Source: Candidatus Tayloriibacteriota bacterium
GTDB lineage: Bacteria > Patescibacteriota > Minisyncoccia > Phycocordibacterales > PALSA-1337
Assembly: GCA_037129895.1 (NCBI GenBank)
Contig: JBAXUB010000003.1
Span: 2,699 to 66,698, forward strand
Length of the DNA stretch: 64,000 bases
Direction: 5' to 3'
A program made the translations under genes and the position numbers. The notes beneath the pieces were generated by a model. It was not told where the DNA came from. It was given only the letters and a program-made list of their open reading frames with translations, and made no database searches. Positions 37,363 through 50,569 of this stretch are shown in pieces. How positions within the stretch are numbered: position 1 is the stretch's first letter; each line of letters starts with the position of its first letter.

Positions 37363-38556
37363 ATGAATATCTGCTATATTTATCCGGGGTATCCGCCAGA
37401 AAATCACTCAGGTGGCGTGGGTACTTTTATTGAGGAATTAGTTAAAACAATTTCTAAGTATGGGACGCATAAGATTGATATCATCTCTCGAAGTGACAAA
37501 TATTTCGATAGCATTGAAAATCTTTCGACTAATGTCACATTATATCGCTTAGGGGAAACCCCTTTAGCGGAAAACAGTCCTGTCCTGTTGTTTCGTAATG
37601 AAGGTTTTCTCCGCCATTATGAAAGAGTGTTAGAGGTTGTAAAAATGATTAATGGCAAAAATCCGATAGATGTAATTGAAGTTGCAGATTGGGGAGCTGA
37701 AGGATTTTTGGTATTGAAGCAATTTTTGGATATCACACTTGTGCGATGTCATACGCCAGCCTTTGTTTCGGAGAGCTATAATCCGAGTAGTAGATCATAT
37801 CTTTCGGACAACATAAAATCATCTGAAAAGAGTATGCTGTCAATCGCTAAACACATTGTTTGTCCCAGTAGAAGTCTCATAGATGAGATTGATAAGCGGG
37901 TACATATTGGTTGTGTACCAAAAATTGAGTTATATCCCCTTGATCTTGGTGATATTAGGACAAAGCAGGACTACGCAATAACATCGAATGAAATAAGATT
38001 GCTTAGCGTTGGTAGAATTGAAGAGCGAAAAGGACAGGATATCATATACCAGGCGTGTCAGCTTATTTCAGAACAAAACAAATATAATATTAGTCTGGAC
38101 CTTATTGGAGCAGATACATATGTCGGAATCAACATGCTATTTAGTAAGTACTTCATTGAGAAGTTAGTAGAAAAGCCGACGTTCAAATTTAGGTTGCTTG
38201 GTGAAATGTCTAGAAAAAAGGTTTTAGAAATATATCAATATTACGATATCTATATTGGTGCATCGAGATTCGATAATTACCCATATACACTTCTTGAAGC
38301 AATGGGCGCAGGTTTGCCGGTGATAGGGAACAACAATTCTGGGATCAGTGAAATAATGATTAAAAACATAAACGGTTTAACGTTTGCTGGTAACTCGACA
38401 GAGCTTGCGAATTCGATTAATACACTTATTCAAGATCAAAAATTACGTGCGTACATAGGAGAGAACGCGAGAAGTTTTATTGAGACAAAATTGACACCTG
38501 GTGTGGTTTATCGTAATGTAATTAGAACGTATCAAAATATATGCAAAAAAGAATAA
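37363..38556 (+). CDS. Glycosyltransferase family 4 (GT-B)
   Basis: It has the N-terminal 'GGVGTFIEEL' and the C-terminal 'E.FG..LLEAMGAGLPVIG'. Start was taken at ATG 37363; the tracker's 37354 is a TTG. Confidence 0.7.
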   Translation: MNICYIYPGYPPENHSGGVGTFIEELVKTISKYGTHKIDIISRSDKYFDSIENLSTNVTLYRLGETPLAENSPVLLFRNEGFLRHYERVLEVVKMINGKNPIDVIEVADWGAEGFLVLKQFLDITLVRCHTPAFVSESYNPSSRSYLSDNIKSSEKSMLSIAKHIVCPSRSLIDEIDKRVHIGCVPKIELYPLDLGDIRTKQDYAITSNEIRLLSVGRIEERKGQDIIYQACQLISEQNKYNISLDLIGADTYVGINMLFSKYFIEKLVEKPTFKFRLLGEMSRKKVLEIYQYYDIYIGASRFDNYPYTLLEAMGAGLPVIGNNNSGISEIMIKNINGLTFAGNSTELANSINTLIQDQKLRAYIGENARSFIETKLTPGVVYRNVIRTYQNICKKE

Positions 38557-40193
38557 TTTCTCACAATAAAAACCTTGGAAAAAGACTAACTATGCAGTCA
38601 GATTTGCTGTTTTCAATTCACCATTTATTTCACAAAAAAGGTTTTAAAGAGATTAATACTCCAATATTAAGTTTTCCCACAAAGGAATATGGTGACGGTG
38701 AATTTGTTGTCGTGTCCAAGCTCCAGCCTGGAAAGTTCTATTCTCTTCCGCATTCTCCCCAATTGTATAAACAATATTTATTGGCTCGTTTTCCAGAACT
38801 GAAAGCATACTATCAGATAGCGTCAAATTTTCGACCTGAAATTGGTGATAATACACACGCACAAGAATTTCATCAAATAGATTTCGAAATTGCAAATTTA
38901 TCTCTGGACGATGTGCGACGAACTATTGAGCAAATTTGTAGTAAAGCTTTTTCACTTATTGACATTAGGCCGACCTATACCGTTATGAGATTTGAAGACT
39001 CTGTGTGTCTTTATGGCTCCGATTCGCCTGATCTTAGATACAGCGGTGGGGAATTTAGAAACGACGGAAAGGAAGTATATTTCGAAATACCAATTAGAGA
39101 TGTCCTAGATTTGCAGAAGTTGAAATCGCAGTTACGTGCAAGAACAGGTGTTAGTATGAGAATCGGACCAAAGTCATTTGTATTTGCGTCTCAAAAGGGT
39201 AACTTATATATACTAGGAGATTTCCGAAATAGGCTGATCAAAAATTATGTATTACGTCTACATTCTAAATGGTCATTCGTCTGGCTGATCGATTTACCTC
39301 TATTCAAGCGCGATGGCAATGGGCAAATTTCCACCTTTCATCATCCGCAAATGTCACCAATGAGTCATTATGCTTTTTGGAAAGCCGCAAAATCAAAAGA
39401 TATTAACGAAGTACTTTCTTTGAGGGGAAATGGATGTGAGCTCATAGTCAACGGAATGGAGCTTGGAGGAGGTAATGTTCGTAATAACGATTTAAAGATA
39501 CAAAAGGAAATTCTTAACATTTGTGGAGTAAGTGACACATCGCTTAGATCTACGTTTAAACCATTACTTGATATGCTCAGATCGCATCCGAATTACAAAA
39601 GCTCTGGAGCAGCTGTAGGCCTTGATCGTCTTATGATGTTATTAACAAAGAGCGATTCTCTTTCAGATAACCGAGCATTTCCACAAGATAATAATGGCAC
39701 GGAGTATTTCGGTGGCCCCTCAAACGTTTCTATGTCAGATTTACAGGAATTAGGTTTAGATTATGAACACCCGATAATAACCCAGTCACGGCAAACAGCA
39801 ATACGACTCGTTGAGGCAAATAACAATTTTATTCACGATCGAAAACATATACAGAATGTTGAGCAAAATGCAGTCGCGATCGCTATCAATGAAGGAGTTT
39901 TACCAGACGAAATACTCATTTTAAGACTAGCGGCGCATTGGCATGATGTCGGACGAAATGATTGGTTGCCACGTGAAATTGAACCCCACGCAGAAATTTC
40001 TATGAAAGCATTTAGAGAATGGGCGAATACGATGGGGATGCCAAATTCAGTAATTACTCCTGTTGAGTTATTGATAAAGGAACATGATGAACTATCGAAG
40101 ATCGAGCATCCTGATAAATTATTAAAAATCTTGCAAGACGGTGATAGGTTGGATGTTATTAATGTTGAGAGAGTGCAGAGGATATTGGCGTAG
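38541..40193 (+). CDS. Class IIb (AspRS-like) aminoacyl-tRNA-synthetase catalytic domain without anticodon-binding domain, fused to a C-terminal HD phosphohydrolase domain
   Basis: Motif 1 is 'FKEINTPIL'. Motif 2 is 'LPHSPQLYKQYLL...FRPEIGDNTHAQEFHQIDFEIA'. Motif 3 is 'ELGGGNVRNNDLKIQ...AAVGLDRLMMLLT...AFPQ'. The C-terminus carries 'AAHWHDVGR...EHD...DGDRLD'. Confidence 0.6.
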   Translation: MQKRIISHNKNLGKRLTMQSDLLFSIHHLFHKKGFKEINTPILSFPTKEYGDGEFVVVSKLQPGKFYSLPHSPQLYKQYLLARFPELKAYYQIASNFRPEIGDNTHAQEFHQIDFEIANLSLDDVRRTIEQICSKAFSLIDIRPTYTVMRFEDSVCLYGSDSPDLRYSGGEFRNDGKEVYFEIPIRDVLDLQKLKSQLRARTGVSMRIGPKSFVFASQKGNLYILGDFRNRLIKNYVLRLHSKWSFVWLIDLPLFKRDGNGQISTFHHPQMSPMSHYAFWKAAKSKDINEVLSLRGNGCELIVNGMELGGGNVRNNDLKIQKEILNICGVSDTSLRSTFKPLLDMLRSHPNYKSSGAAVGLDRLMMLLTKSDSLSDNRAFPQDNNGTEYFGGPSNVSMSDLQELGLDYEHPIITQSRQTAIRLVEANNNFIHDRKHIQNVEQNAVAIAINEGVLPDEILILRLAAHWHDVGRNDWLPREIEPHAEISMKAFREWANTMGMPNSVITPVELLIKEHDELSKIEHPDKLLKILQDGDRLDVINVERVQRILA

Positions 40194-40199
40194 TATAGT

Positions 40200-41039
40200 A
40201 TGGGCAATCAGATCGGCGAGTACAATTATTATCAGTCTATAGCATTTTGGGTTAAAATGAACAAAACCATGAACAATATTTTACAGACAAAATCAGCGAA
40301 AAAAATGTATTTAGATCGCCAATCGGAATTTAACGATATTATAGAGTTGTTACGCGTGTACAGGATCGACACTAAAAGAACAATAATTGCACTTGGTGGT
40401 GCGGAATCAATCACAGGCATATATAACTCTTTGGATAGGTCGGTACTCGGTTCTGTTGCTTCCGACAAAATCAAAATGCTTTATGTACCTATTGGCGTTT
40501 TCGGAAATGCTGATATTGTCAAAACAGTTGATGAATATGTAACGATTGTAAAGAGGTATTATCAAGGTTTGGGTAGTGAGGTTGATTTTAAGTATGTAAG
40601 CCCTCATGATTCTGAGGATGAGATTATTTCAAAAATTAAGGAGGCAGGCATAGTTTATTTAGCAGGAGGTGATACAAAATATTTAATCGAGAAGCTAAGT
40701 GCACCCAAAATAGAAGAGGCACTTAAAGAATCTTATGAAAAAGGAACAATTCTGATTGGAAACAGTGCTGGTATATTGTGTCTTCTTCAAAATCCAGTTT
40801 CATTTTCCTATGGTGATGAGCCAGAATACATGAAAGGTCTTGGATTACTAAAAAAATATTGCATCCTGGTTCACTATTCACCAGAGAAGGATGCACATAT
40901 AAAAAAAATACAGAAGCAAGTTAAGGATGATCAAATAGTACTGCTACCTGAATCTGGTGCCGCAATATTTATAAATGAGGAGCTCGTAGCTTCTACGGAA
41001 AAAAATAGCGTGTTACCCACTGCTGGTAACACGCGCTAG
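40200..41039 (+). CDS. Peptidase S51 family (dipeptidase E/cyanophycinase-like)
   Basis: 'IVYLAGGDTKYLIEKL' is followed by the nucleophile motif 'GNSAGILCL', then His in 'VHYSPE'. Confidence 0.5.
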   Translation: MGNQIGEYNYYQSIAFWVKMNKTMNNILQTKSAKKMYLDRQSEFNDIIELLRVYRIDTKRTIIALGGAESITGIYNSLDRSVLGSVASDKIKMLYVPIGVFGNADIVKTVDEYVTIVKRYYQGLGSEVDFKYVSPHDSEDEIISKIKEAGIVYLAGGDTKYLIEKLSAPKIEEALKESYEKGTILIGNSAGILCLLQNPVSFSYGDEPEYMKGLGLLKKYCILVHYSPEKDAHIKKIQKQVKDDQIVLLPESGAAIFINEELVASTEKNSVLPTAGNTR

Positions 41040-41061: not shown

Positions 41062-42552
41062 TTAGTCAGTGTAGTGTCCGATCGATGAGCTCAATGTATC
41101 AGGATTTACAGTGATCCTACCAAGGACTTGCTGTCTATCATTTTCGGTGGGTTCTTGGAATGATCTATTGCCATGAACCTGGGCCGTAATTTCAGCAAGG
41201 TCGTCCACGAACTTTTGATAAAACTGGCGCGTATACTCACATGCACGCTTATCACAGTTCATCATGTTTCCTGATTGTACCCACGATTCGTAGGCACAGG
41301 CATTCCCACATATCCCTATGGCTTTACAACCTTGACATGTATCGATGTAGACAGGTGAGCGTCGCTGAAGTGAATCTAGGATGTTTGGTTTCATCGAACA
41401 ACAATTAGCTGGTTCGATAGTCATACCACTAGCTAGTGTGTTAAGAGCTAGGAATGATTTACATGGACCGATGTTGCCTCGGGCATCAATGTTAATCGTT
41501 GTACCAGCGGCGGCTCCGCAATCGTGGTATCTGAACCTTCTGGTAACAAATGGATGGACTCTTCTGTACACGAGTTCAAAGAATAGTCCTGTGTTACGAA
41601 ACACACGGAAAGCATCATATGTTGCTTGGACGAAGTCAATAGGCGTGATCAGGAATGGGAAGTCCCCTTGACTCTTTGTTGGAGGCTTCATGTAGTTCAC
41701 TCCGATGCTTACTGGCCGATATTCTTCCAACATGGTTGAGATTTCACGTTTAAGATGGCAGACGTTGTGTTTTCCAATCACCATCGAAAGACCGAGTTCT
41801 ATACCAAAGCTGTTGAGTAGGCGGATGCCCATGTCAACTTGTTTGAATGATCCACGACCAGTGTGGTCTTTGCGCAGTATATCGTGGATGTCCTGTTGGC
41901 CATCAATCGATACTATCACCTTGATGTTATGGTGAGATAGATATTTCGCCCGTTCCGCGTTGATCAATATTCCGTTTGTGCCAAGCGCGATGAAGTATCT
42001 TTCACCAGCGCGTTTGAGCGATTCGACGAGAACGATTATTTGTTTTACACGTTCCCAAGCTATTAAAGGTTCCCCACCTGAAATATGTATGACCTTAGGC
42101 GTCGATGGGACGGAACCATTAAAGAAGAGTTCGATTACGTGTTTAAGATCCTCTGGTGATGCGGCCCGTTTAGTTACTGTAGTGATATTGTGCATAACCT
42201 TACAATAATCACAGCTCAGGTTGCAAACGTCTGTAAGGAGGATGCGTAGAAGCCTGTACCCACTATTACGGGTGCTCGTTTCTGGAGTTATGAAGTCAGT
42301 TAACTGTTCGTTTTCAGATAAAGCTACAAACGAGCCTCTGTTCAATGTCTCCACAAGATGCTTCGCTTCAGTGGGACAATATAATTGTTCCGCAAATGCG
42401 GAGACTTCTTCTTGTGTCCTATCACTAGTTATGAAATTTGCAAGTCTAATCAATCTGTTATCGCCGAATATTTGATTCAGCGAAACCGATTGGGATAAAA
42501 CCTGCAGTCCATTGCTAGCAATCATGGACTTGCTGAATTTTGATAATCTCAT
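41062..42552 (-). CDS. Radical SAM/SPASM-domain peptide maturase with N-terminal RRE (PqqD-like) domain
   Basis: The rSAM motif is CNLSCDYC (Cx3Cx2C). The C-terminal Cys-rich SPASM region reads 'CQGCKAIGICGNACAYE'. The ~110-aa N-terminal extension is PqqD/RRE-like. Confidence 0.75.
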   Translation of the reverse strand: MRLSKFSKSMIASNGLQVLSQSVSLNQIFGDNRLIRLANFITSDRTQEEVSAFAEQLYCPTEAKHLVETLNRGSFVALSENEQLTDFITPETSTRNSGYRLLRILLTDVCNLSCDYCKVMHNITTVTKRAASPEDLKHVIELFFNGSVPSTPKVIHISGGEPLIAWERVKQIIVLVESLKRAGERYFIALGTNGILINAERAKYLSHHNIKVIVSIDGQQDIHDILRKDHTGRGSFKQVDMGIRLLNSFGIELGLSMVIGKHNVCHLKREISTMLEEYRPVSIGVNYMKPPTKSQGDFPFLITPIDFVQATYDAFRVFRNTGLFFELVYRRVHPFVTRRFRYHDCGAAAGTTINIDARGNIGPCKSFLALNTLASGMTIEPANCCSMKPNILDSLQRRSPVYIDTCQGCKAIGICGNACAYESWVQSGNMMNCDKRACEYTRQFYQKFVDDLAEITAQVHGNRSFQEPTENDRQQVLGRITVNPDTLSSSIGHYTD

Positions 42553-42708: not shown

Positions 42709-42776
42709 GTTAAACAATAGTGCACAACCTGGTGGGGTAATTGAATGTTGGAATACTTTTTGTCGTTTTACCCATA
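42709..42776 (-). CDS. Candidate 21-aa precursor peptide MGKTTKSIPTFNYPTRLCTIV (unannotated small ORF)
   Basis: I translated it by hand. It has an AGGAA RBS 6 nt upstream, sits ~155 nt upstream of the maturase on the same strand, and has a single Cys near the C-terminus. Confidence 0.2.
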
Positions 42777-42819: not shown

Positions 42820-42917
42820 CATAGATTTGAGGTCAATAGTAAGCCACAGAAAGTATGTGGATCTAGAGGACTTGAGCTGTGGTATAATTTTTGTATAGAA
42901 TTTTAATATACGAGTTT
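42820..42917 (+). repeat. ~90-bp direct repeat copy 2 with extended -10 promoter (TGGTATAAT at 42890-42898)
   Basis: It is near-identical to 37271-37362 and ends at ATG 42918. Confidence 0.65.
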
Positions 42918-43685
42918 ATGCCAACAGAACAAATGAATTTCGATCAATTGATATCAAAACTGTCCAATAATCAGAATGTGGACGCGCTACTTCTGTGTGG
43001 TTCAACTGCTACACAAACGCGTACTACTAGTAGTGATTATGATCTTGTTGTTATTGTCAAAGATAAGCCTGAAAAGCTAGTGTCGATGTTTGCAACGATC
43101 GGTAACGTACCAGCTGATATTTTTTTCTTTACAATATTGGAAATAGAAACTATTTTGAAGAACATGAGTGTGAAAGATGGTGCGGAGATGTGGCTATTGA
43201 ATTGGCTCGAAACTGGCAAGATTTCCTTCGATAAGTCTGGGACCTTAACGAAACTGCAAGAAACGAGAAGGAGTGTACAGAAGCCAGACAATGTTTCTTT
43301 GGCTAAGTCCTACGAATACAAGATCAATTATAATCTTCTGGCTAATACACGGTATTTTGAATCTAAAGATGAGCTTTATCATGCGGCACTAGAGATCCGT
43401 CTTTTATATTCCATTGTCGAAGCACTGGTCGGATATTTTACTATGCGTGCCATAAATTGGGAAGGAGAGAAGAGTGCTATCCTATATCTAAGAAAGAACG
43501 ACCCAGCATATCTGAAAGTATTTGAGTCAGTCTGTAGAGAGACATCTCTTTTTAGTAAGTTCGCTTCTTACAAGAAATTAGTTGAGGAGTCATTTTATGG
43601 TAAATACAAGAAGTGGGATAATGATATTGCTGTTAGTATGGATGGTGACTTCGGTGAATTCTGGAGGGGTCTATTGAATATGTAA
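42918..43685 (+). CDS. Nucleotidyltransferase-fold protein (Pol-beta superfamily, ANT/Lnu-like)
   Basis: It carries 'LLCGSTATQ...SDYDLVVIV', which is the GS...D.D motif. Confidence 0.5.
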   Translation: MPTEQMNFDQLISKLSNNQNVDALLLCGSTATQTRTTSSDYDLVVIVKDKPEKLVSMFATIGNVPADIFFFTILEIETILKNMSVKDGAEMWLLNWLETGKISFDKSGTLTKLQETRRSVQKPDNVSLAKSYEYKINYNLLANTRYFESKDELYHAALEIRLLYSIVEALVGYFTMRAINWEGEKSAILYLRKNDPAYLKVFESVCRETSLFSKFASYKKLVEESFYGKYKKWDNDIAVSMDGDFGEFWRGLLNM

Positions 43686-43774: not shown

Positions 43775-44368
43775 TCAAAATAATTTTTTGACGGTTTTTC
43801 TTAAATTTTGAAATATATCGATCTCTAGGAAACCAATTTTTTCAACCAAGCGCCTTGTATCTATTGCGCGAACCTGAGACAAGATGGCAGAAGCGTGTTT
43901 TCCTTGAATTTCTCCTATAGGCACACGTAAATAATGTTTACGAAGAGAAGTGGTGAGAGGTATAACCATACAGATATTGGCCCCAAATCCACGGATGATC
44001 AAAACTGGTCTTAAGAAGTCCTCTCCATTACCATCTTGCTCCGAGCCTATGTTTATACCTAGTCTGCACCACCAAACTTCCCGTACAGTATAGAGGCGCG
44101 GTTTTTCTATATGTACAAGTTTCTTCTTGAAATTCCAACTGTCAAATTCTTTATTAATAGAAACTGGGTCTTCGAATGAGAACCTGATACCGTATTCTAC
44201 GCCAAATTCACTATTTCGAATATGATTTTCAGCTTCTTTTGCGGCTGTATATAGCAGGTCAAATGTACCAAGGACACTGATTTCTCCATTGGTATCAAAA
44301 TCCATTTCAGAAACATAATATTTTCCTGTAGGCGTTTCTTCTATTTGAATGTAATTATTTGTACTCAT
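43775..44368 (-). CDS. MazF/PemK-family toxin domain with ~100-aa N-terminal extension
   Basis: The C-terminal half reads '...RPVLIIRGF...ICMVIPLTTS...AILSQVRAIDTRRLVEKIGFL', a MazF signature. No separate antitoxin ORF was seen upstream. Confidence 0.55.
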   Translation of the reverse strand: MSTNNYIQIEETPTGKYYVSEMDFDTNGEISVLGTFDLLYTAAKEAENHIRNSEFGVEYGIRFSFEDPVSINKEFDSWNFKKKLVHIEKPRLYTVREVWWCRLGINIGSEQDGNGEDFLRPVLIIRGFGANICMVIPLTTSLRKHYLRVPIGEIQGKHASAILSQVRAIDTRRLVEKIGFLEIDIFQNLRKTVKKLF

Positions 44369-45432: not shown

Positions 45433-46062
45433 ATGAAAAGACCAAGTCTACCACAGTCACAGGATTTGCCTATTATCTCAAGGGACCAGCTGCATGACTT
45501 ATATATTACGTGTCGTCAATCAGTTTCTGCAATCGCTATTTTGTTAAAATGTTCTCAGAATAGAATTAACTACTGGCTGGCAAAATATCATATACCAAAA
45601 AGGACTATTTCCGAGGCAATTTATCAGTTAAGAAATCCTAAGGGTGATCCGTTTCTATATAAACCACCGGATAGTTTAGAGACAGCAGTATTGTTTGGAA
45701 TGGGACTCGGGTTATATTGGGGTGAAGGCTCAAAACGTGGGACGGGTGGTGTTAGATTGACTAATACAGATCCGAGATTGCTAAGAAAATTCATTGAGTT
45801 TTTACAAGTATCATTCAACATTGATAGGTTTAAGTTGAGATTTGGCCTCCAAATATTCGATGATCTTTCGAAAGTTAAGACTTTGTCATATTGGACTCGC
45901 GAACTCGGAGTCAGCAGAAAACAGTTTTATAAGATTATTGTTTCAAAGATTCGCGGTAAAGGAACATATAAGATTAAGTCTGCAAATGGTGTGATAATTG
46001 TATATTTCAATAATATCAAACTGAAGAGACAGATCTGTGCCATGATTGATAATATCAGATAA
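45433..46062 (+). CDS. HTH-containing protein with a possible degenerate single LAGLIDADG-like motif
   Basis: It has an N-terminal HTH-like segment and 'FGMGLGLYWGEGSKRGTGGVRL', which is LAGLIDADG-like and resembles the single-motif family. The call is weak. Confidence 0.25.
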   Translation: MKRPSLPQSQDLPIISRDQLHDLYITCRQSVSAIAILLKCSQNRINYWLAKYHIPKRTISEAIYQLRNPKGDPFLYKPPDSLETAVLFGMGLGLYWGEGSKRGTGGVRLTNTDPRLLRKFIEFLQVSFNIDRFKLRFGLQIFDDLSKVKTLSYWTRELGVSRKQFYKIIVSKIRGKGTYKIKSANGVIIVYFNNIKLKRQICAMIDNIR

Positions 46063-46144: not shown

Positions 46145-46424
46145 ATATAGTTATGCCGATGTAGCTCAGTTGGTAGAGCACGCCATTGGTAGGTCGTAAG
46201 ACCCTGCCCATATATGAGGTAACTCGTATATGAATCCCGAATTACGGTTAAAGTCCACAGAACATATTATTGCGGATAAGACCGTGGCGCTTCAAGTAGA
46301 TGCGCCCGAACGACTGACAAGGGTTTCCATTGTTCGAATGGAAAAAGATACAGTCTAGTCCTTGCTGTAAAGTGAGGTGTAAACGAATGGCGAGGTCTCC
46401 GGTTCAATCCCGGACGTCGGCTCC
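46145..46424 (+). tRNA. tRNA-Thr (anticodon GGT) interrupted by a 204-nt group I intron in the anticodon loop (exons 46145-46180 and 46385-46421, plus encoded CCA to 46424)
   Basis: The 5' half is GCCGATG-TA-GCTC...GAGC-A-CGCCA-TTGGT. The 3' half is AA-TGGCG-AGGTC-TCCGG-TTCAATC-CCGGA-CGTCGGC-T-CCA. The halves pair only if 46181-46384 is removed. Confidence 0.7.
46181..46384 (+). ncRNA. Group I intron (self-splicing intron candidate) in tRNA-Thr
   Basis: It inserts after U36, the intron ends in G, and it contains a P-element-like 'ttattgcggataag', an R-like 'acgactgacaa' and an S-element-like 'aagatacagtctagtcc'. There is no internal ORF. Confidence 0.6.
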
Positions 46425-46471
46425 AATTCCTCATGTGGATTCTCTATCCACATTGTCGTATACTAGACACC

Positions 46472-47045: not shown

Positions 47046-47121
47046 GCCGATGTAGCTCAGTTGGTAGAGCGCCACTTTCGTAAAGTGGATGTCCCCGGTT
47101 CGATTCCGGGCATCGGCTCCA
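47046..47121 (+). tRNA. tRNA-Thr (anticodon CGT), CCA encoded
   Basis: Same 5' half as tRNA-Thr(GGT), anticodon arm CCACT-TTCGTAA-AGTGG, T arm CCCGG-TTCGATT-CCGGG. Confidence 0.85.
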
Positions 47122-47214: not shown

Positions 47215-48141
47215 ATGGGAGACTATATTTCGAGAATTGAATCAATCAAGATATCTTATCCAGACTTAAAGGATGAGAATTTTGTGCCTGCAAAAAGTGG
47301 TACTCATCATGCAGTATTTATATCGAAAAATTTTGTGATCCGTTTCAGAGATGATAATCCGAGTCTACTTCAGCGAGAAGCGAAGCTTCTAGAAACGATT
47401 TCAGATACGCTGGTTCCAAAAGTTCTGTGGAAGAATTTTGAAGAAAAAGTGGGTGTCATCGTGGAAAATCGCTTACATGGAGAGAATATTAGTTTGGTAT
47501 GGAAATCATTATCAGTACAAGAAAGATCTAAATTAGTAAGTGGGTTAGTTGAATTTATTGGGAAACTTAGAAATATTGTGGGGAACAGGGTGTCTTCTGT
47601 TAGTAATGGTAAAGAGTATTCAAATTTTATTGATTTATTGCTTGATGGAGTACAGGAAAAGATTTCAAAGATATCTGAGTTCGATAAGGCTCGTGCCGTT
47701 ATTGCCGAAATTGAGCAGACTATTTCAGGTCAGGATATGATTGGGGATTTGTTTAATGGGTCAAAGATTTCGCTGATTCATGGTGATTTGATCAATCATA
47801 ATTTGTTGTCTGATGGTGGCAAACTCACTGGTGTTTTAGACTGGGAATTGGCTTGTTATGGTGATCAGGATTTTGATTTGTTTAGGCTTTTCTACTATCG
47901 TGAATGTGCCATGGCTTATCACGGTCAGGGTGTTGATGATACTTATGAATCTGAATATATGGATATTCTGATTGAAGAAATATACAAGTCAGGTCTAATA
48001 GGTGACGATAATATTTTTCAAAAAAAATATGCCTTTGTACGAGCAATCTTTTTTGTTAATGCACTATATTGGGATGTTTCATCCAATAAGGCGGAGGAAA
48101 ATCTCGCGAGTACTATAAATTTGTGGTTTAAGGGTAAATAA
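47215..48141 (+). CDS. Aminoglycoside phosphotransferase (APH)/choline-kinase family kinase
   Basis: It carries 'IHGDLINHNLL...VLDWELACYGDQDFDL', the Brenner/HGD motif plus a DxD motif. Confidence 0.6.
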   Translation: MGDYISRIESIKISYPDLKDENFVPAKSGTHHAVFISKNFVIRFRDDNPSLLQREAKLLETISDTLVPKVLWKNFEEKVGVIVENRLHGENISLVWKSLSVQERSKLVSGLVEFIGKLRNIVGNRVSSVSNGKEYSNFIDLLLDGVQEKISKISEFDKARAVIAEIEQTISGQDMIGDLFNGSKISLIHGDLINHNLLSDGGKLTGVLDWELACYGDQDFDLFRLFYYRECAMAYHGQGVDDTYESEYMDILIEEIYKSGLIGDDNIFQKKYAFVRAIFFVNALYWDVSSNKAEENLASTINLWFKGK

Positions 48142-48187
48142 AAAAGGGCCATGAACTAGTCGTGGCCCCGCTGAAAGTTGGGTAAAC

Positions 48188-48280
48188 CTACTTACAGCTA
48201 GTTCGTCTCCCAAAATGTTCCGAACCACCACGTGGTGGGGTTAATTTCGAGATGCGAATCTTTTTTGTTTTGATTTTCAT
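48188..48280 (-). CDS. Candidate 30-aa peptide MKIKTKKIRISKLTPPRGGSEHFGRRTSCK (unannotated small ORF)
   Basis: Translated by hand. It has an AGGAA RBS 6 nt upstream, lies immediately downstream of the rSAM gene on the same strand, and has a single C-terminal Cys. It also contains the 14-bp palindrome ccaccacgtggtgg. Confidence 0.2.
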   Translation of the reverse strand: MKIKTKKIRISKLTPPRGGSEHFGRRTSCK

Positions 48281-48305
48281 AATTTCCTTTGTCTAGAGAT
48301 TACTC

Positions 48306-49742
48306 TTACCCGGTGCTTGTGTCAAGCTCCTGTGACTTTAGGTGCTCGATTATCAATGCGTCTGTTATCTCTCGATAGAATTCGCACTGGCTTGTAAAGA
48401 TCTTGTTGTCTTGGAAAGACCCACTTTTTGAAGAGAATTCTCGAGTAACTTCGCATTGGCCAGCACAGGCGCACTCGATTTGGCATCCTATACAGACCTT
48501 GTCGGTCCCAGGGTATCTCGCTTTCACAAGTCGTGAAAGATTGTTGTTACTCTCAAATAGCTTATCGAAAGTATTTACATGACCAATTCGACTGGTTGTA
48601 TGACTGCAGACTTTAATACTTCCGTCAGTGTTGAATTCAAGCGACTTTCCTTGGACGGCTGCACAGAATGTATGCGTCTCTGTGAGGAGGTTTCCGCTAG
48701 TAAGATTCCTGTAGGCACTGTCCCATGTACCGAAGAAGTTTATGCCAATTGCGTCAGCGTACTTTTTTAGGCACATAAGCTTACTTACTTTTTCCTTTGT
48801 CGGCACATTGTGGAGTCCTATCAGATCGTAATCAAACGCGATAGACGTCATCTGTCGATTGGCTGCCCAGTCGATTATGTCTGTTCCAATAGAATCAAAG
48901 TTGTTCTGCGCCACAGTTATACTAAATCCGTCCAAGGGGTACCCAATATGATCTAGAAGGTCGATATTTTTTACAATTGCGTCAAATGTTCCTCGTCCTT
49001 CGTTTGTTATGCGTATAGCATTGTTGGCGATTTTAGTGCCGTCTAGAGATGTAGCGATGCGAACCTTAAATTTCTTCAGGGTATGTGCTATGTCGGACGT
49101 TAATAACGTAAGGTTTGTATTAATAGTGAATTCAAACGAGATGTCCGAAATAGAGTCACAGTAGTGTAGTATTTTAGCAATAGTTTGCCAGTTGAATAAT
49201 GGTTCTGCATTGCCGAAATGAATCTTGCAGTGATTTCGGTTGTGATCTCGTAGTAGTGCAATAAATCCGTCTATACATATTTTTGCGGTTTCCCATGTCA
49301 TGTTGAGTCCCGGTAATGGTCGCCTATACTCAGTAATTTTTTCTTGCGTCTCCGAATCCTTCTGGAAATGGATACAATGTTTGCAGGCTAGGTTGCACCA
49401 GTCACTAATAGCTAAACCCATTCTATCTACGGTCCGTCCACTAGCCAGTTCAAGTAAGTATTTTGATCGATTTTGAACTAGTATAAGTCGTTCGTCTTGG
49501 CCAGGGATGATGAGGAAAGATAATTGCTTGAAGTTTTCAAGTAGTTCTCTAGGGTCGTCATCGCACTGTTCGACAATAGCAATTAAAGTTTGTGGCTTCA
49601 AAAACAAGTTGAGAAAATTAATTCCTTCTGCATTCAGGATTCTGGGATTTCCGAACAGTTTGTGGTAAACCAGGGTTGAATTGGAAGACGGCTCTTTAAC
49701 ATAGCGTAAGAATGGAGATAGTTGATATTTTGAATCTTGCAT
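48306..49742 (-). CDS. Radical SAM/SPASM-domain peptide maturase with N-terminal RRE (PqqD-like) domain
   Basis: The rSAM motif is CNLACKHC (Cx3Cx2C), and the SPASM region reads 'CIGCQIECACAGQCE'. The N-terminal stretch 'ILNAEGINFLNLF...TLIAIVEQ...DPRELLENFKQLSFLI' is PqqD/RRE-like. Confidence 0.75.
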   Translation of the reverse strand: MQDSKYQLSPFLRYVKEPSSNSTLVYHKLFGNPRILNAEGINFLNLFLKPQTLIAIVEQCDDDPRELLENFKQLSFLIIPGQDERLILVQNRSKYLLELASGRTVDRMGLAISDWCNLACKHCIHFQKDSETQEKITEYRRPLPGLNMTWETAKICIDGFIALLRDHNRNHCKIHFGNAEPLFNWQTIAKILHYCDSISDISFEFTINTNLTLLTSDIAHTLKKFKVRIATSLDGTKIANNAIRITNEGRGTFDAIVKNIDLLDHIGYPLDGFSITVAQNNFDSIGTDIIDWAANRQMTSIAFDYDLIGLHNVPTKEKVSKLMCLKKYADAIGINFFGTWDSAYRNLTSGNLLTETHTFCAAVQGKSLEFNTDGSIKVCSHTTSRIGHVNTFDKLFESNNNLSRLVKARYPGTDKVCIGCQIECACAGQCEVTREFSSKSGSFQDNKIFTSQCEFYREITDALIIEHLKSQELDTSTG

Positions 49743-49924
49743 AAGATTTGTTCATTTGTTTGATTGTCAGAGATCGAATAATAAAGACGTTGTCTATATA
49801 TGTACTCGTTTAGTTCTACTACTAATGCACAAAATGTCAATAGGTACTAAATGTGATCGTAGGGGAGGGATCCTGTTGCCGTAGTTGTGTCTATGTGGTT
49901 ATATTGTTACAATTTTTGCATAAA

Positions 49925-50569
49925 ATGCCATCAAATATGATTTATAGATTAAACAGTGAAGTCAATAATAATCTCCAGGATGTTTGCTCTATAGCGCACA
50001 AAGAGCTTGATGAATTTTTTGGTATCAATTGGGTTAGGAATCTACCTCGTCTAATTATTGTAAATGATAGGAAAACAATCGATGGATTGTTTGGTAAAAA
50101 AACAGAGGCGTGGACAATAGGTTGGTCGGAAAATAACAATATCTATGTTCTCGATAAGAATAAGTTTTCTGAGGAAAGCGATCATAAGGAGTATACTGAT
50201 GATGAATATGCCGTGCTCGTGAAGCATGAAATGAGCCATTCATTTTCGAAAATATTAGCAAAAGGGGAAGTGAAGCCTAAATGGCTTTGGGAGGGTATTG
50301 CTGTATATACTTCAGGTGAGAACAAAGCGCGGATTAGACCTACAGAGTTTAAGCAATTTCTTGACTTTTTCGATGAAGGCGGTAAGGGTGTGTACGTAGA
50401 GGCCGGTTTTGCAATTCAACTTCTTGTCGAAAAATTTGGTAAACAAAAAATATTGGATTTGATAAAGATCTCATCCACATTTACGACGAGGGATGATTTC
50501 AATCTTGCGTTCAATTCGAGCTTTGATTTTGAGCCGACGTATGAGGAATTTAACAGGTTACTTTATTAA
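49925..50569 (+). CDS. Putative zinc metallopeptidase (HExxH)
   Basis: 'VKHEMSHSF' is an HExxH motif, with a downstream Glu in 'WLWEGIAVY'. It is divergent from the rSAM gene. Confidence 0.35.
   Translation: MPSNMIYRLNSEVNNNLQDVCSIAHKELDEFFGINWVRNLPRLIIVNDRKTIDGLFGKKTEAWTIGWSENNNIYVLDKNKFSEESDHKEYTDDEYAVLVKHEMSHSFSKILAKGEVKPKWLWEGIAVYTSGENKARIRPTEFKQFLDFFDEGGKGVYVEAGFAIQLLVEKFGKQKILDLIKISSTFTTRDDFNLAFNSSFDFEPTYEEFNRLLY

Follow-up and report, generated by a model that had tools for sequence, protein, structure and literature searches.

The window analyzed here is a stretch of 64,000 nucleotides (nt) from a Candidatus Tayloriibacteriota bacterium (Patescibacteriota; contig JBAXUB010000003.1 of assembly GCA_037129895.1, positions 2,699 to 66,698 of the forward strand). 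This report concerns a locus at positions 47215 to 50569 of the window that contains the genes for a radical S-adenosylmethionine (SAM) maturase, a very small peptide, and a kinase of the APH family. These three genes likely form a compact cassette that is widespread in Patescibacteria and serves the production of a ribosomally made, enzyme-modified peptide. As judged from sequence comparisons, the cassette is real, conserved, and so far undescribed, and it belongs to the radical-SAM-modified ribosomal peptides. Its features in the window are as follows.

47215-48141, + strand: APH-family kinase, 308 amino acids (aa); Pfam APH match, catalytic motifs HGDLIxHNLL and DWE
48140-48169, - strand: intrinsic terminator that ends the maturase-peptide transcript, GGGGCCAcgactagttcaTGGCCC plus T run; sequence and RNAfold
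48188-48280, - strand: peptide open reading frame (ORF) MKIKTKKIRISKLTPPRGGSEHFGRRTSCK, 30 aa plus stop; conservation and codon-level selection
48225-48238, both strands: 14-bp palindrome CCACCACGTGGTGG, inside the peptide ORF, codons Pro-Pro-Arg-Gly-Gly
48284-48288, - strand: ribosome-binding site AGGAA, 3 nt 5' of the peptide ATG
48306-49742, - strand: maturase with RiPP (ribosomally synthesized and posttranslationally modified peptide) recognition element (RRE), radical SAM, and SPASM domains, 478 aa; Pfam Radical_SAM, invariant Cys, AlphaFold, Foldseek

The maturase and peptide genes lie on a common strand, each with its own ribosome-binding site, and are separated by a spacer of 25 nt between the maturase stop and the start of the peptide ORF. 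The kinase gene is convergent with the peptide gene, tail to tail.

The small ORF is a conserved peptide gene

We searched contigs of one genome per species, as well as metagenome contigs, with a profile built from 28 maturase homologues. The peptide count was restricted to loci (designated by L numbers) in which the maturase was at least 50% identical, its 3' end complete, and the downstream sequence sufficient. A homologous ORF of 30 to 37 aa was found on the same strand, directly 3' of the maturase gene, in 34 of these 35 orthologous loci, and the 35th encodes a variant peptide ending in GGKRTNCCT. The ORF is known in 30 distinct nucleotide versions. Its consensus, MKKIEIKKIKIAKVvPLPSGASFPGKRTGCK, consists of an amphipathic, basic, leader-like N-terminal part with KKIxI-like repeats, whose number differs among loci (e.g., L090 and L106), and a C-terminal end, G-[KR]-R-T-x-C-K, that holds the strictly invariant residues.

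Codon patterns provided the following evidence. (i) The entropy at third codon positions is 1.16, versus 0.66 and 0.48 at the other positions. (ii) In the reading frame of the peptide, the ratio of nonsynonymous to synonymous polymorphism (pN/pS) is 0.32, whereas both other frames have values of about 1.1. (iii) The invariant Gly, Arg, Thr, Cys, and Lys residues are each specified by several synonymous codons across loci. Taken together with the conservation of the ORF, these data argue for a selected, translated gene and against a by-product of a hairpin. On this codon-level evidence, the frame of 30 codons is a genuine gene that the annotation lacks; it encodes a small basic peptide, which appears to be translated and is under purifying selection as a protein.

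A sequence-only reading of this locus had proposed the 30-aa ORF, preceded by AGGAA and located after the maturase gene on the same strand, as a candidate peptide gene. The ORF is present with exactly that sequence and is a conserved gene of the precursor type. The same reading had allowed for a terminator hairpin unaccompanied by any conserved small ORF, which is not what the orthologous loci contain, since they retain the ORF and a separate terminator follows it. In most loci the ribosome-binding site is the stronger AAGGAGGTGA; the AGGAA of the window is weak. The gene is absent from the annotation of this genome, only a few of its relatives have been caught by gene callers, and none of these was given a name. 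The exact window peptide had no match in a collection of 15 billion proteins, and curated families returned no match at up to E 10, either in NCBIfam (six variants) or in Pfam (five variants).

Transcription signals and mRNA structure

Folding was compared for the ORF and its 3' flank from 28 to 30 loci and for window segments 48166-48202 and 48205-48246. Two hairpins follow the peptide frame in every locus. The first is small; its 5' arm is formed by the x-Cys-Lys codons, the stop codon lies in its loop, and compensatory changes from C-G to T-A were noted at two positions. The second is strong and GC-rich, with a T run after it. In most orthologues, the gap between the peptide and kinase genes is only ~15 nt, and this second hairpin, the terminator, lies within the last eight codons of the kinase gene (GVKYLRT-stop). 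In the window it reads GGGGCCA...TGGCCC before the T run and overlaps the kinase stop codon. Since a terminator occurs only after the peptide gene, this gene is within the transcription unit of the maturase. Rfam matched the region of the terminator to sX14 (26 bits, gathering score of 80), which was dismissed as chance. Averaged over the sequences, the central part of the ORF is more stably folded than its synonymous-codon shuffles (mean z of -1.4; 63% of the sequences below -1), although this does not hold for the window itself; this fold, together with the hairpin at the stop codon, may reflect selection on mRNA structure.

The 14-bp palindrome that had also drawn attention in the sequence-only reading exists at the position given above, and it proved to be neither special nor conserved. 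The window contains 6 perfect 14-nt palindromes, with 4.75 ± 2.4 expected; an alignment of the orthologues revealed that they do not share CCACCACGTGGTGG; and the window segment is no more stable than its synonymous-codon shuffles (z = -0.4). Pro codons (CCN) are complementary to Gly codons (GGN), so such a palindrome is easily obtained. We therefore rejected it as a functional element; it is incidental and has no conserved part in the system.

The maturase belongs to a large superfamily related to TigE

The maturase matches Pfam Radical_SAM (PF04055) with 35.1 bits (cut-off of 29.5), which places it in the radical SAM superfamily, and its CNLACKHC motif supplies the invariant C116-x3-C120-x2-C123. 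Seven cysteines of the SPASM domain (C360, C379, C417, C420, C426, C430, and C453), together with G365, are invariant in the 28 homologues, are also kept across 150 representatives of the superfamily, and align with the SPASM domain of TigE. The N terminus is modeled as an RRE (strands at 12-36 and helices at 38-47, 53-59, and 65-73, with a predicted local distance difference test [pLDDT] score of >90), and from residue 7 onward the maturase aligns with TigE from residue 8, that is, over the RRE that was determined crystallographically in TigE at residues 3-85 (PMC10878394). The domain composition that had been read from the sequence was thus borne out by the Radical_SAM match, the invariant cysteines, and the alignment and model of the putative RRE.

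The AlphaFold model of the whole protein has a pLDDT of 87, and its top Foldseek match is the methyl-cyclopropylglycine synthase TigE (PDB 8VPO; E 3e-32; template-modeling scores of 0.80/0.85). A HMMER search of the PDB with the family profile retrieved TigE at E 6e-61. ChlB, CteB, SuiB, and anSME follow far behind in sequence or fold, with CteB (5WGG) as the third-best fold. More than 200 homologues of the maturase were found in Patescibacteria. Two further invariant cysteines, C156 and C195, form an extra pair that is limited to the closest Patescibacteria clade.

In TigE, the Tyr of a GYW motif is a ligand to the first auxiliary cluster; it is strictly conserved in cyclopropyl synthases (RadicalSAM.org cluster 1-1-201:AS65) and needed for activity (PMC10878394). 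At the equivalent position the maturase has G338-T339-W340, and GTW is invariant in its family; the maturase thus lacks the feature that defines a cyclopropyl synthase. A search of 1.84 billion representative proteins with the family profile retrieved 344 clusters (50% identity) at E <= 1e-30. In the best 150 of these 344 clusters, the middle residue of G-x-W is mostly Phe, Thr, or Tyr, and Ser, Met, Gln, and Lys also occur. Tyr is first encountered at about rank 45. The TigE cluster is near rank 125; in this library, ~120 clusters score closer to the maturase family than TigE does. On these sequence data, the maturase is a member of a large, mostly uncharacterized "GxW" superfamily to which TigE is related.

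The kinase is a fixed partner of the maturase

The kinase scored 60.7 bits against Pfam APH (PF01636; cut-off of 23.2), which confirms the family proposed from the sequence alone, and its motifs HGDLIxHNLL and D209-W-E are invariant or nearly so. The AlphaFold model (pLDDT of 91) is closest in fold to APH(4)-Ia and APH(2''). The kinase gene is adjacent, convergent, and tail to tail in all 31 loci that extend far enough. A search seeded with the kinase retrieved 87 clusters, which share at least 36% identity and form a single tight family. For several of these clusters, the longest contig is equal in length to that of a maturase match, which suggests that the two genes share contigs, and at two loci reached from the kinase side (L149 and L151) the peptide is present too. 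Models for named resistance kinases acting on aminoglycosides, macrolides, or capreomycin all remained below their equivalog cut-offs, the best scores being 26.8 bits (205 required) for APH(3') and 15.1 bits (390 required) for Cph; a weak NCBIfam match to capreomycin phosphotransferase had an E value of 0.014.

The maturase gene has been broken by independent nonsense, frameshift, and deletion events in ~8 to 10 lineages, a sample that is small and phylogenetically related. The events are as follows.

L004 = L112: TAA at residue 167
L084: TAA at residue 364
L109: TAG at residue 7
L116: TAG at residue 342
L009 = L120: frameshift near residue 150
L111: frameshift near residue 115
L125 = L127: clean deletion that starts at maturase residue 220 and extends to the peptide Cys codon
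L151: internal deletion of residues 193-437

As a result of the deletion in L125/L127, maturase codon 219 is directly followed by the final two peptide codons. By contrast, 31 of the 32 complete kinase genes have remained intact. Beside a broken maturase, the peptide gene is intact wherever the sequence reaches it (L004, L009, L084, L111, L112, and L151). At a further locus, L150, the kinase occurs alone, next to an EF-Tu/S10 operon. That the kinase outlives the maturase in these sequences hints at a role in self-protection.

Only the maturase and the kinase are conserved among the neighbors

The neighborhood was analyzed by tblastn over 64 related loci and by all-against-all clustering of the neighbors over 45 of them. 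The clustering returned the maturase and the kinase as the only conserved proteins; no transporter, peptidase, or lyase was conserved in the 45 loci. The genes that flank the cassette vary among loci, as is the case for accessory cassettes.

The sequence-only reading had assembled a toolkit for modification, phosphorylation, and leader cleavage from the maturase, the kinase, and a protein with an HExxH motif. The first two are indeed conserved partners. The third is encoded in the window, in divergent orientation to the maturase gene with a spacer of 110 bp:

49853-50569, + strand: HExxH protein, 238 aa if counted from the listed GTG start; HEMSH

Its score against Peptidase_MA_2 (19.9 bits) is under the cut-off of 32.4 bits. 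Only one of the 64 related loci, L005, has a homologue (4 kb from the maturase), and the protein is missing from the conserved-neighbor clusters; we rejected it as a member of the cassette and as the leader peptidase of the cluster. There is thus no leader-cleaving step encoded in the conserved unit. A 159-aa protein and the other neighbors in the window were likewise rejected, as neither the tblastn nor the clustering indicated conservation.

Distant relatives lack the kinase

More distant maturases, 36 to 45% identical, were found in an ANME-1 archaeon (L010) and on other metagenome contigs. Distant maturases with a related small ORF occur at L010, L115, L118, L119, L121, and L008/L114; no kinase was found at the loci of this distant group. 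The peptides have a similar amphipathic, basic N terminus (MKVSIKSIKRV... or MSKIAIKKIQV...) and only one Cys, which is located two to five residues before the C terminus. In some loci the peptide ORF is upstream of the maturase and ends in ...ASRVTCQRRS or ...AKRATCQRRG, and in others it is downstream and ends in ...KDASCT. The lone Cys is the one feature common to every clade of the peptide family. The shared N terminus fits a leader recognized by the RRE, and the Cys that all clades retain suggests where the chemistry takes place. The family of peptides and maturases extends past Patescibacteria into archaea.

Comparison with characterized systems

The cassette was compared with the following known systems. 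(i) TigE/TvgB (PDB 8VPO; PMC10878394) is the best match in both sequence and fold. It has the same build of RRE, radical SAM barrel, and seven-Cys SPASM domain as the maturase, a G-x-W motif at the equal position, and a gene for a short peptide substrate that adjoins the enzyme gene. The two enzymes differ in that they are only ~21% identical and that the Tyr ligand of TigE is an invariant Thr in the maturase. Furthermore, the TigE/TvgB substrates consist of TVGG or TIGSVS repeats, whereas the cassette peptide is a single 31-mer with an invariant Cys-containing tail, and the cassette has a kinase partner, unlike TigE/TvgB. (ii) CteB (SCIFF/ranthipeptides), PapB, and the sactipeptide synthases share the RRE/radical SAM/SPASM architecture and act on Cys-bearing substrates, and the first auxiliary cluster of the cassette maturase is probably also a three-Cys cluster, as in these thioether-forming enzymes. 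However, their sequence matches are far under the cut-offs, and the cassette peptide has one Cys, whereas their substrates have several. (iii) The class V lanthipeptide and thioamitide clusters contain an APH-family kinase (CaoK, LxmK, or TvaC) beside a precursor with a conserved Thr; this likeness is one of description. These kinases phosphorylate Ser/Thr of the precursors and work with a HopA1-like lyase (PMC9486802). Such a lyase is not conserved in the cassette, in which the kinase is convergent and the cluster centered on a radical SAM enzyme; the dehydration pair of these pathways is represented by the kinase alone, as the 45 loci hold no third conserved protein. (iv) The antibiotic-inactivating APH kinases APH(4)-Ia and APH(2'') are the best fold matches of the cassette kinase, which, unlike them, belongs to a family confined to the cassette in Patescibacteria. 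Like orphan immunity genes, the cassette kinase persists after the loss of the biosynthetic gene. Its likeness to the capreomycin and viomycin phosphotransferases of producers is limited to the weak Cph match, with equivalog scores far under the cut-offs.

Literature searches on radical-SAM RiPPs of Patescibacteria or the candidate phyla radiation (CPR), on the peptide motif, and on the combination of SPASM and phosphotransferase returned nothing relevant, and the cassette is mentioned neither in the two papers that cite 8VPO nor in the TvgB mapping paper.

Proposed mechanism and points against it

We propose that the RRE would bind the N-terminal leader of the peptide and that the radical SAM/SPASM core would modify the C-terminal G-[KR]-R-T-x-C-K at or around the Cys. 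By analogy, a Cys-centered cross-link, namely, a thioether to a neighboring residue, is our best guess for the modification, and we offer it tentatively. The guess derives from the replacement of the TigE Tyr by Thr, which would leave the first auxiliary cluster ligated by three Cys, as in CteB, where this arrangement binds the substrate Cys (PMC10878394). The kinase would phosphorylate a hydroxyl group of the peptide, probably that of the invariant Thr. For the purpose of this step, self-protection or inactivation of the product is slightly preferred over a step of biosynthesis, with a probability that we place just short of an even chance, since the kinase persists without the maturase in the manner of an orphan immunity gene and since its closest folds are antibiotic-inactivating kinases.

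A number of observations weigh against these proposals. (i) TigE, the closest characterized relative, forms C-C bonds on Ile rather than thioethers, and the matches to thioether-forming maturases are far from their thresholds; indeed, all NCBIfam maturase models scored far under their cut-offs (87 bits versus 340 for PapB, 66.7 versus 425 for the SCIFF maturase, and 79 versus 500 for CcpM). (ii) The Pfam PqqD and SPASM models fell short of E 0.01, so that the RRE and SPASM assignments are based on alignment, invariant cysteines, and predicted structure. (iii) The invariance of the Thr does not single out the kinase, because this residue is kept in a distant kinase-less clade. (iv) The mean isoelectric point of the kinase family is 8.4; the family is thus not acidic, which disfavors the binding of a peptide with a net charge of +8, and the idea of an acidic kinase surface suited to a cationic peptide was discarded as unsupported. 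(v) Export and leader removal are unexplained, as transporter, leader peptidase, and lyase genes are not conserved in the 45 loci. (vi) The counts are inflated by the relatedness of the sequences, which are not independent of one another. (vii) The assignments of the modified residue, the type of bond, and the substrate of the kinase are inferred.

Alternative explanations

The strongest alternative is that the kinase is a biosynthetic tailoring enzyme that phosphorylates the invariant Thr, whether as the last modification or in preparation for elimination to dehydrobutyrine, as in class V lanthipeptides and thioamitides. We regard this as plausible but less than probable. APH-like CaoK, LxmK, and TvaC act in this way on RiPP precursors (PMC9486802), the tail-to-tail linkage is strict (31/31), the Thr is invariant in all kinase-linked peptides, and the nearest kinase-less clade has an Ala at its position (KDASCT). 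On the other hand, the distant kinase-less clade retains the Thr, neither a HopA1-like lyase nor any other third gene is conserved in the 45 loci, transcription of the kinase gene is separate and convergent, and the kinase remains intact in loci with a dead or deleted maturase and stands alone at one locus.

It is unlikely that the kinase is unconnected to the peptide, travels with it only by virtue of the terminator within the 3' end of the kinase gene, and has an unrelated small molecule as its substrate. The closest folds are indeed small-molecule kinases, L150 carries the kinase alone, and its overall charge is basic; however, its co-location in 31 of 31 loci amid otherwise unrelated flanks, and the fact that it forms one tight family with several members apparently sharing contigs with the maturase, argue against this view.

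Still less likely is a function of the peptide as the precursor of an intracellular cofactor or signal similar to pyrroloquinoline quinone or mycofactocin, rather than as a secreted antimicrobial. This idea is consistent with a core that is invariant over lineages whose maturases share only 50 to 57% identity and with a cassette that includes no transporter, immunity pump, or leader peptidase. However, the repeated pseudogenization of the maturase argues against an essential cofactor, no redox enzyme that might depend on such a product is linked to the cassette, and the flanks differ among loci as they do for accessory cassettes.

We consider it improbable that the maturase performs TigE-like C-C chemistry (e.g., cyclopropanation) on the Ile/Val residues of the N-terminal KKIxIKKIKIxKV, with the C-terminal motif as a recognition tail. 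TigE is by far the closest characterized relative, the substrates of cyclopropyl synthases are short repeats with a conserved Val or Ile (PMC10878394), and the number of KI repeats varies in the peptide (L090 and L106), but the essential Tyr of GYW is replaced by an invariant Thr, the N-terminal motif is common to all clades and leader-like, and the strictly invariant residues are C-terminal.

Finally, we give practically no credence to the view that the small ORF is untranslated and the region a mere terminator or hairpin between convergent genes, for which the listing of the palindrome as a terminator-like site on the + strand, the weak AGGAA of the window, and the missing database entry for the exact peptide could be cited, as the frame is kept in 34 of 35 loci with a strong AAGGAGGTGA, has a low pN/pS in this frame only, uses synonymous codons at invariant residues, and is followed by a separate terminator.

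Second maturase and other features of the window

A second maturase (maturase 1) is encoded at 41062-42552 (- strand). The description of the two enzymes as paralogous was overstated, as they are 21% identical and have different conserved neighbors. In a comparison of three orthologous loci (L146, L147, and L148), maturase 1 adjoins a protein with class II aminoacyl-tRNA synthetase-like (PF00152), HD, and Peptidase_S51 domains and a GT4 glycosyltransferase. The former protein is fused in L146 and L147 (819 to 836 aa) and split in the window (38541-40193 and 40200-41039, + strand). No conserved small ORF was found at the three loci. From its sequence context, the maturase 1 locus appears to be a separate kind of system, possibly one that is aminoacyl dependent. 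The only matching ORF near maturase 1, MGKTTKSIPTFNYPTRLCTIV (42710-42775, - strand), has no counterpart in these three loci, and the suggestion that the two candidate peptides of the window form one family, which would also have to accommodate the low identity of their maturases, was rejected.

Other features were observed in the window.

42891-43685, + strand: nucleotidyltransferase between the two maturases, with a weak match to MntA-type antitoxins
43775-44368, - strand: PemK/MazF-like toxin domain with an N-terminal extension of ~95 aa, also between the maturases
45433-46062, + strand: LAGLIDADG-like/helix-turn-helix ORF, directly 5' of the apparent split tRNA
46155-46425, + strand: apparent split tRNA, with a 5' half GCCGATGTAGCTCAGTTGGTAGAGCAC..., a 3' half ...GGTTCAATCCCGGACGTCGGCTCCA, and ~200 nt between them
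47046-47121, + strand: tRNA-Thr, near the kinase gene

The split tRNA was not called by ARAGORN, and its spacer has a weak match to a group I intron (RF00028; 19.9 bits, E 0.05) that is under the gathering score.

Implications for Patescibacteria and the GxW superfamily

The cassette might make a small, strongly cationic, Cys-cross-linked peptide, its core unchanged among Parcubacteria-type lineages, that acts as a toxin or signal between cells, with the kinase as an immunity enzyme based on phosphorylation. We advance this as a speculation that has a minor chance of being correct in full. Such a role would account for the many genomes in which the kinase has survived the maturase as an orphan. 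If true, this would be the first radical SAM peptide system with kinase-mediated self-protection and among the first natural-product systems typical of CPR bacteria, which have tiny genomes and very few recognized natural-product pathways. The pairing of maturase and kinase bears on the role of APH-fold kinases as immunity enzymes for ribosomal peptides. In the GxW superfamily of at least 344 clusters, the reaction is known only for the Tyr-bearing branch, the cyclopropyl synthases, and the Thr-bearing branch, with its simple substrate of 31 residues, offers a tractable route to the chemistry of the other branches. A cassette of three genes with an invariant core across lineages is a rare handle on the interactions of uncultured CPR bacteria with their hosts or competitors.

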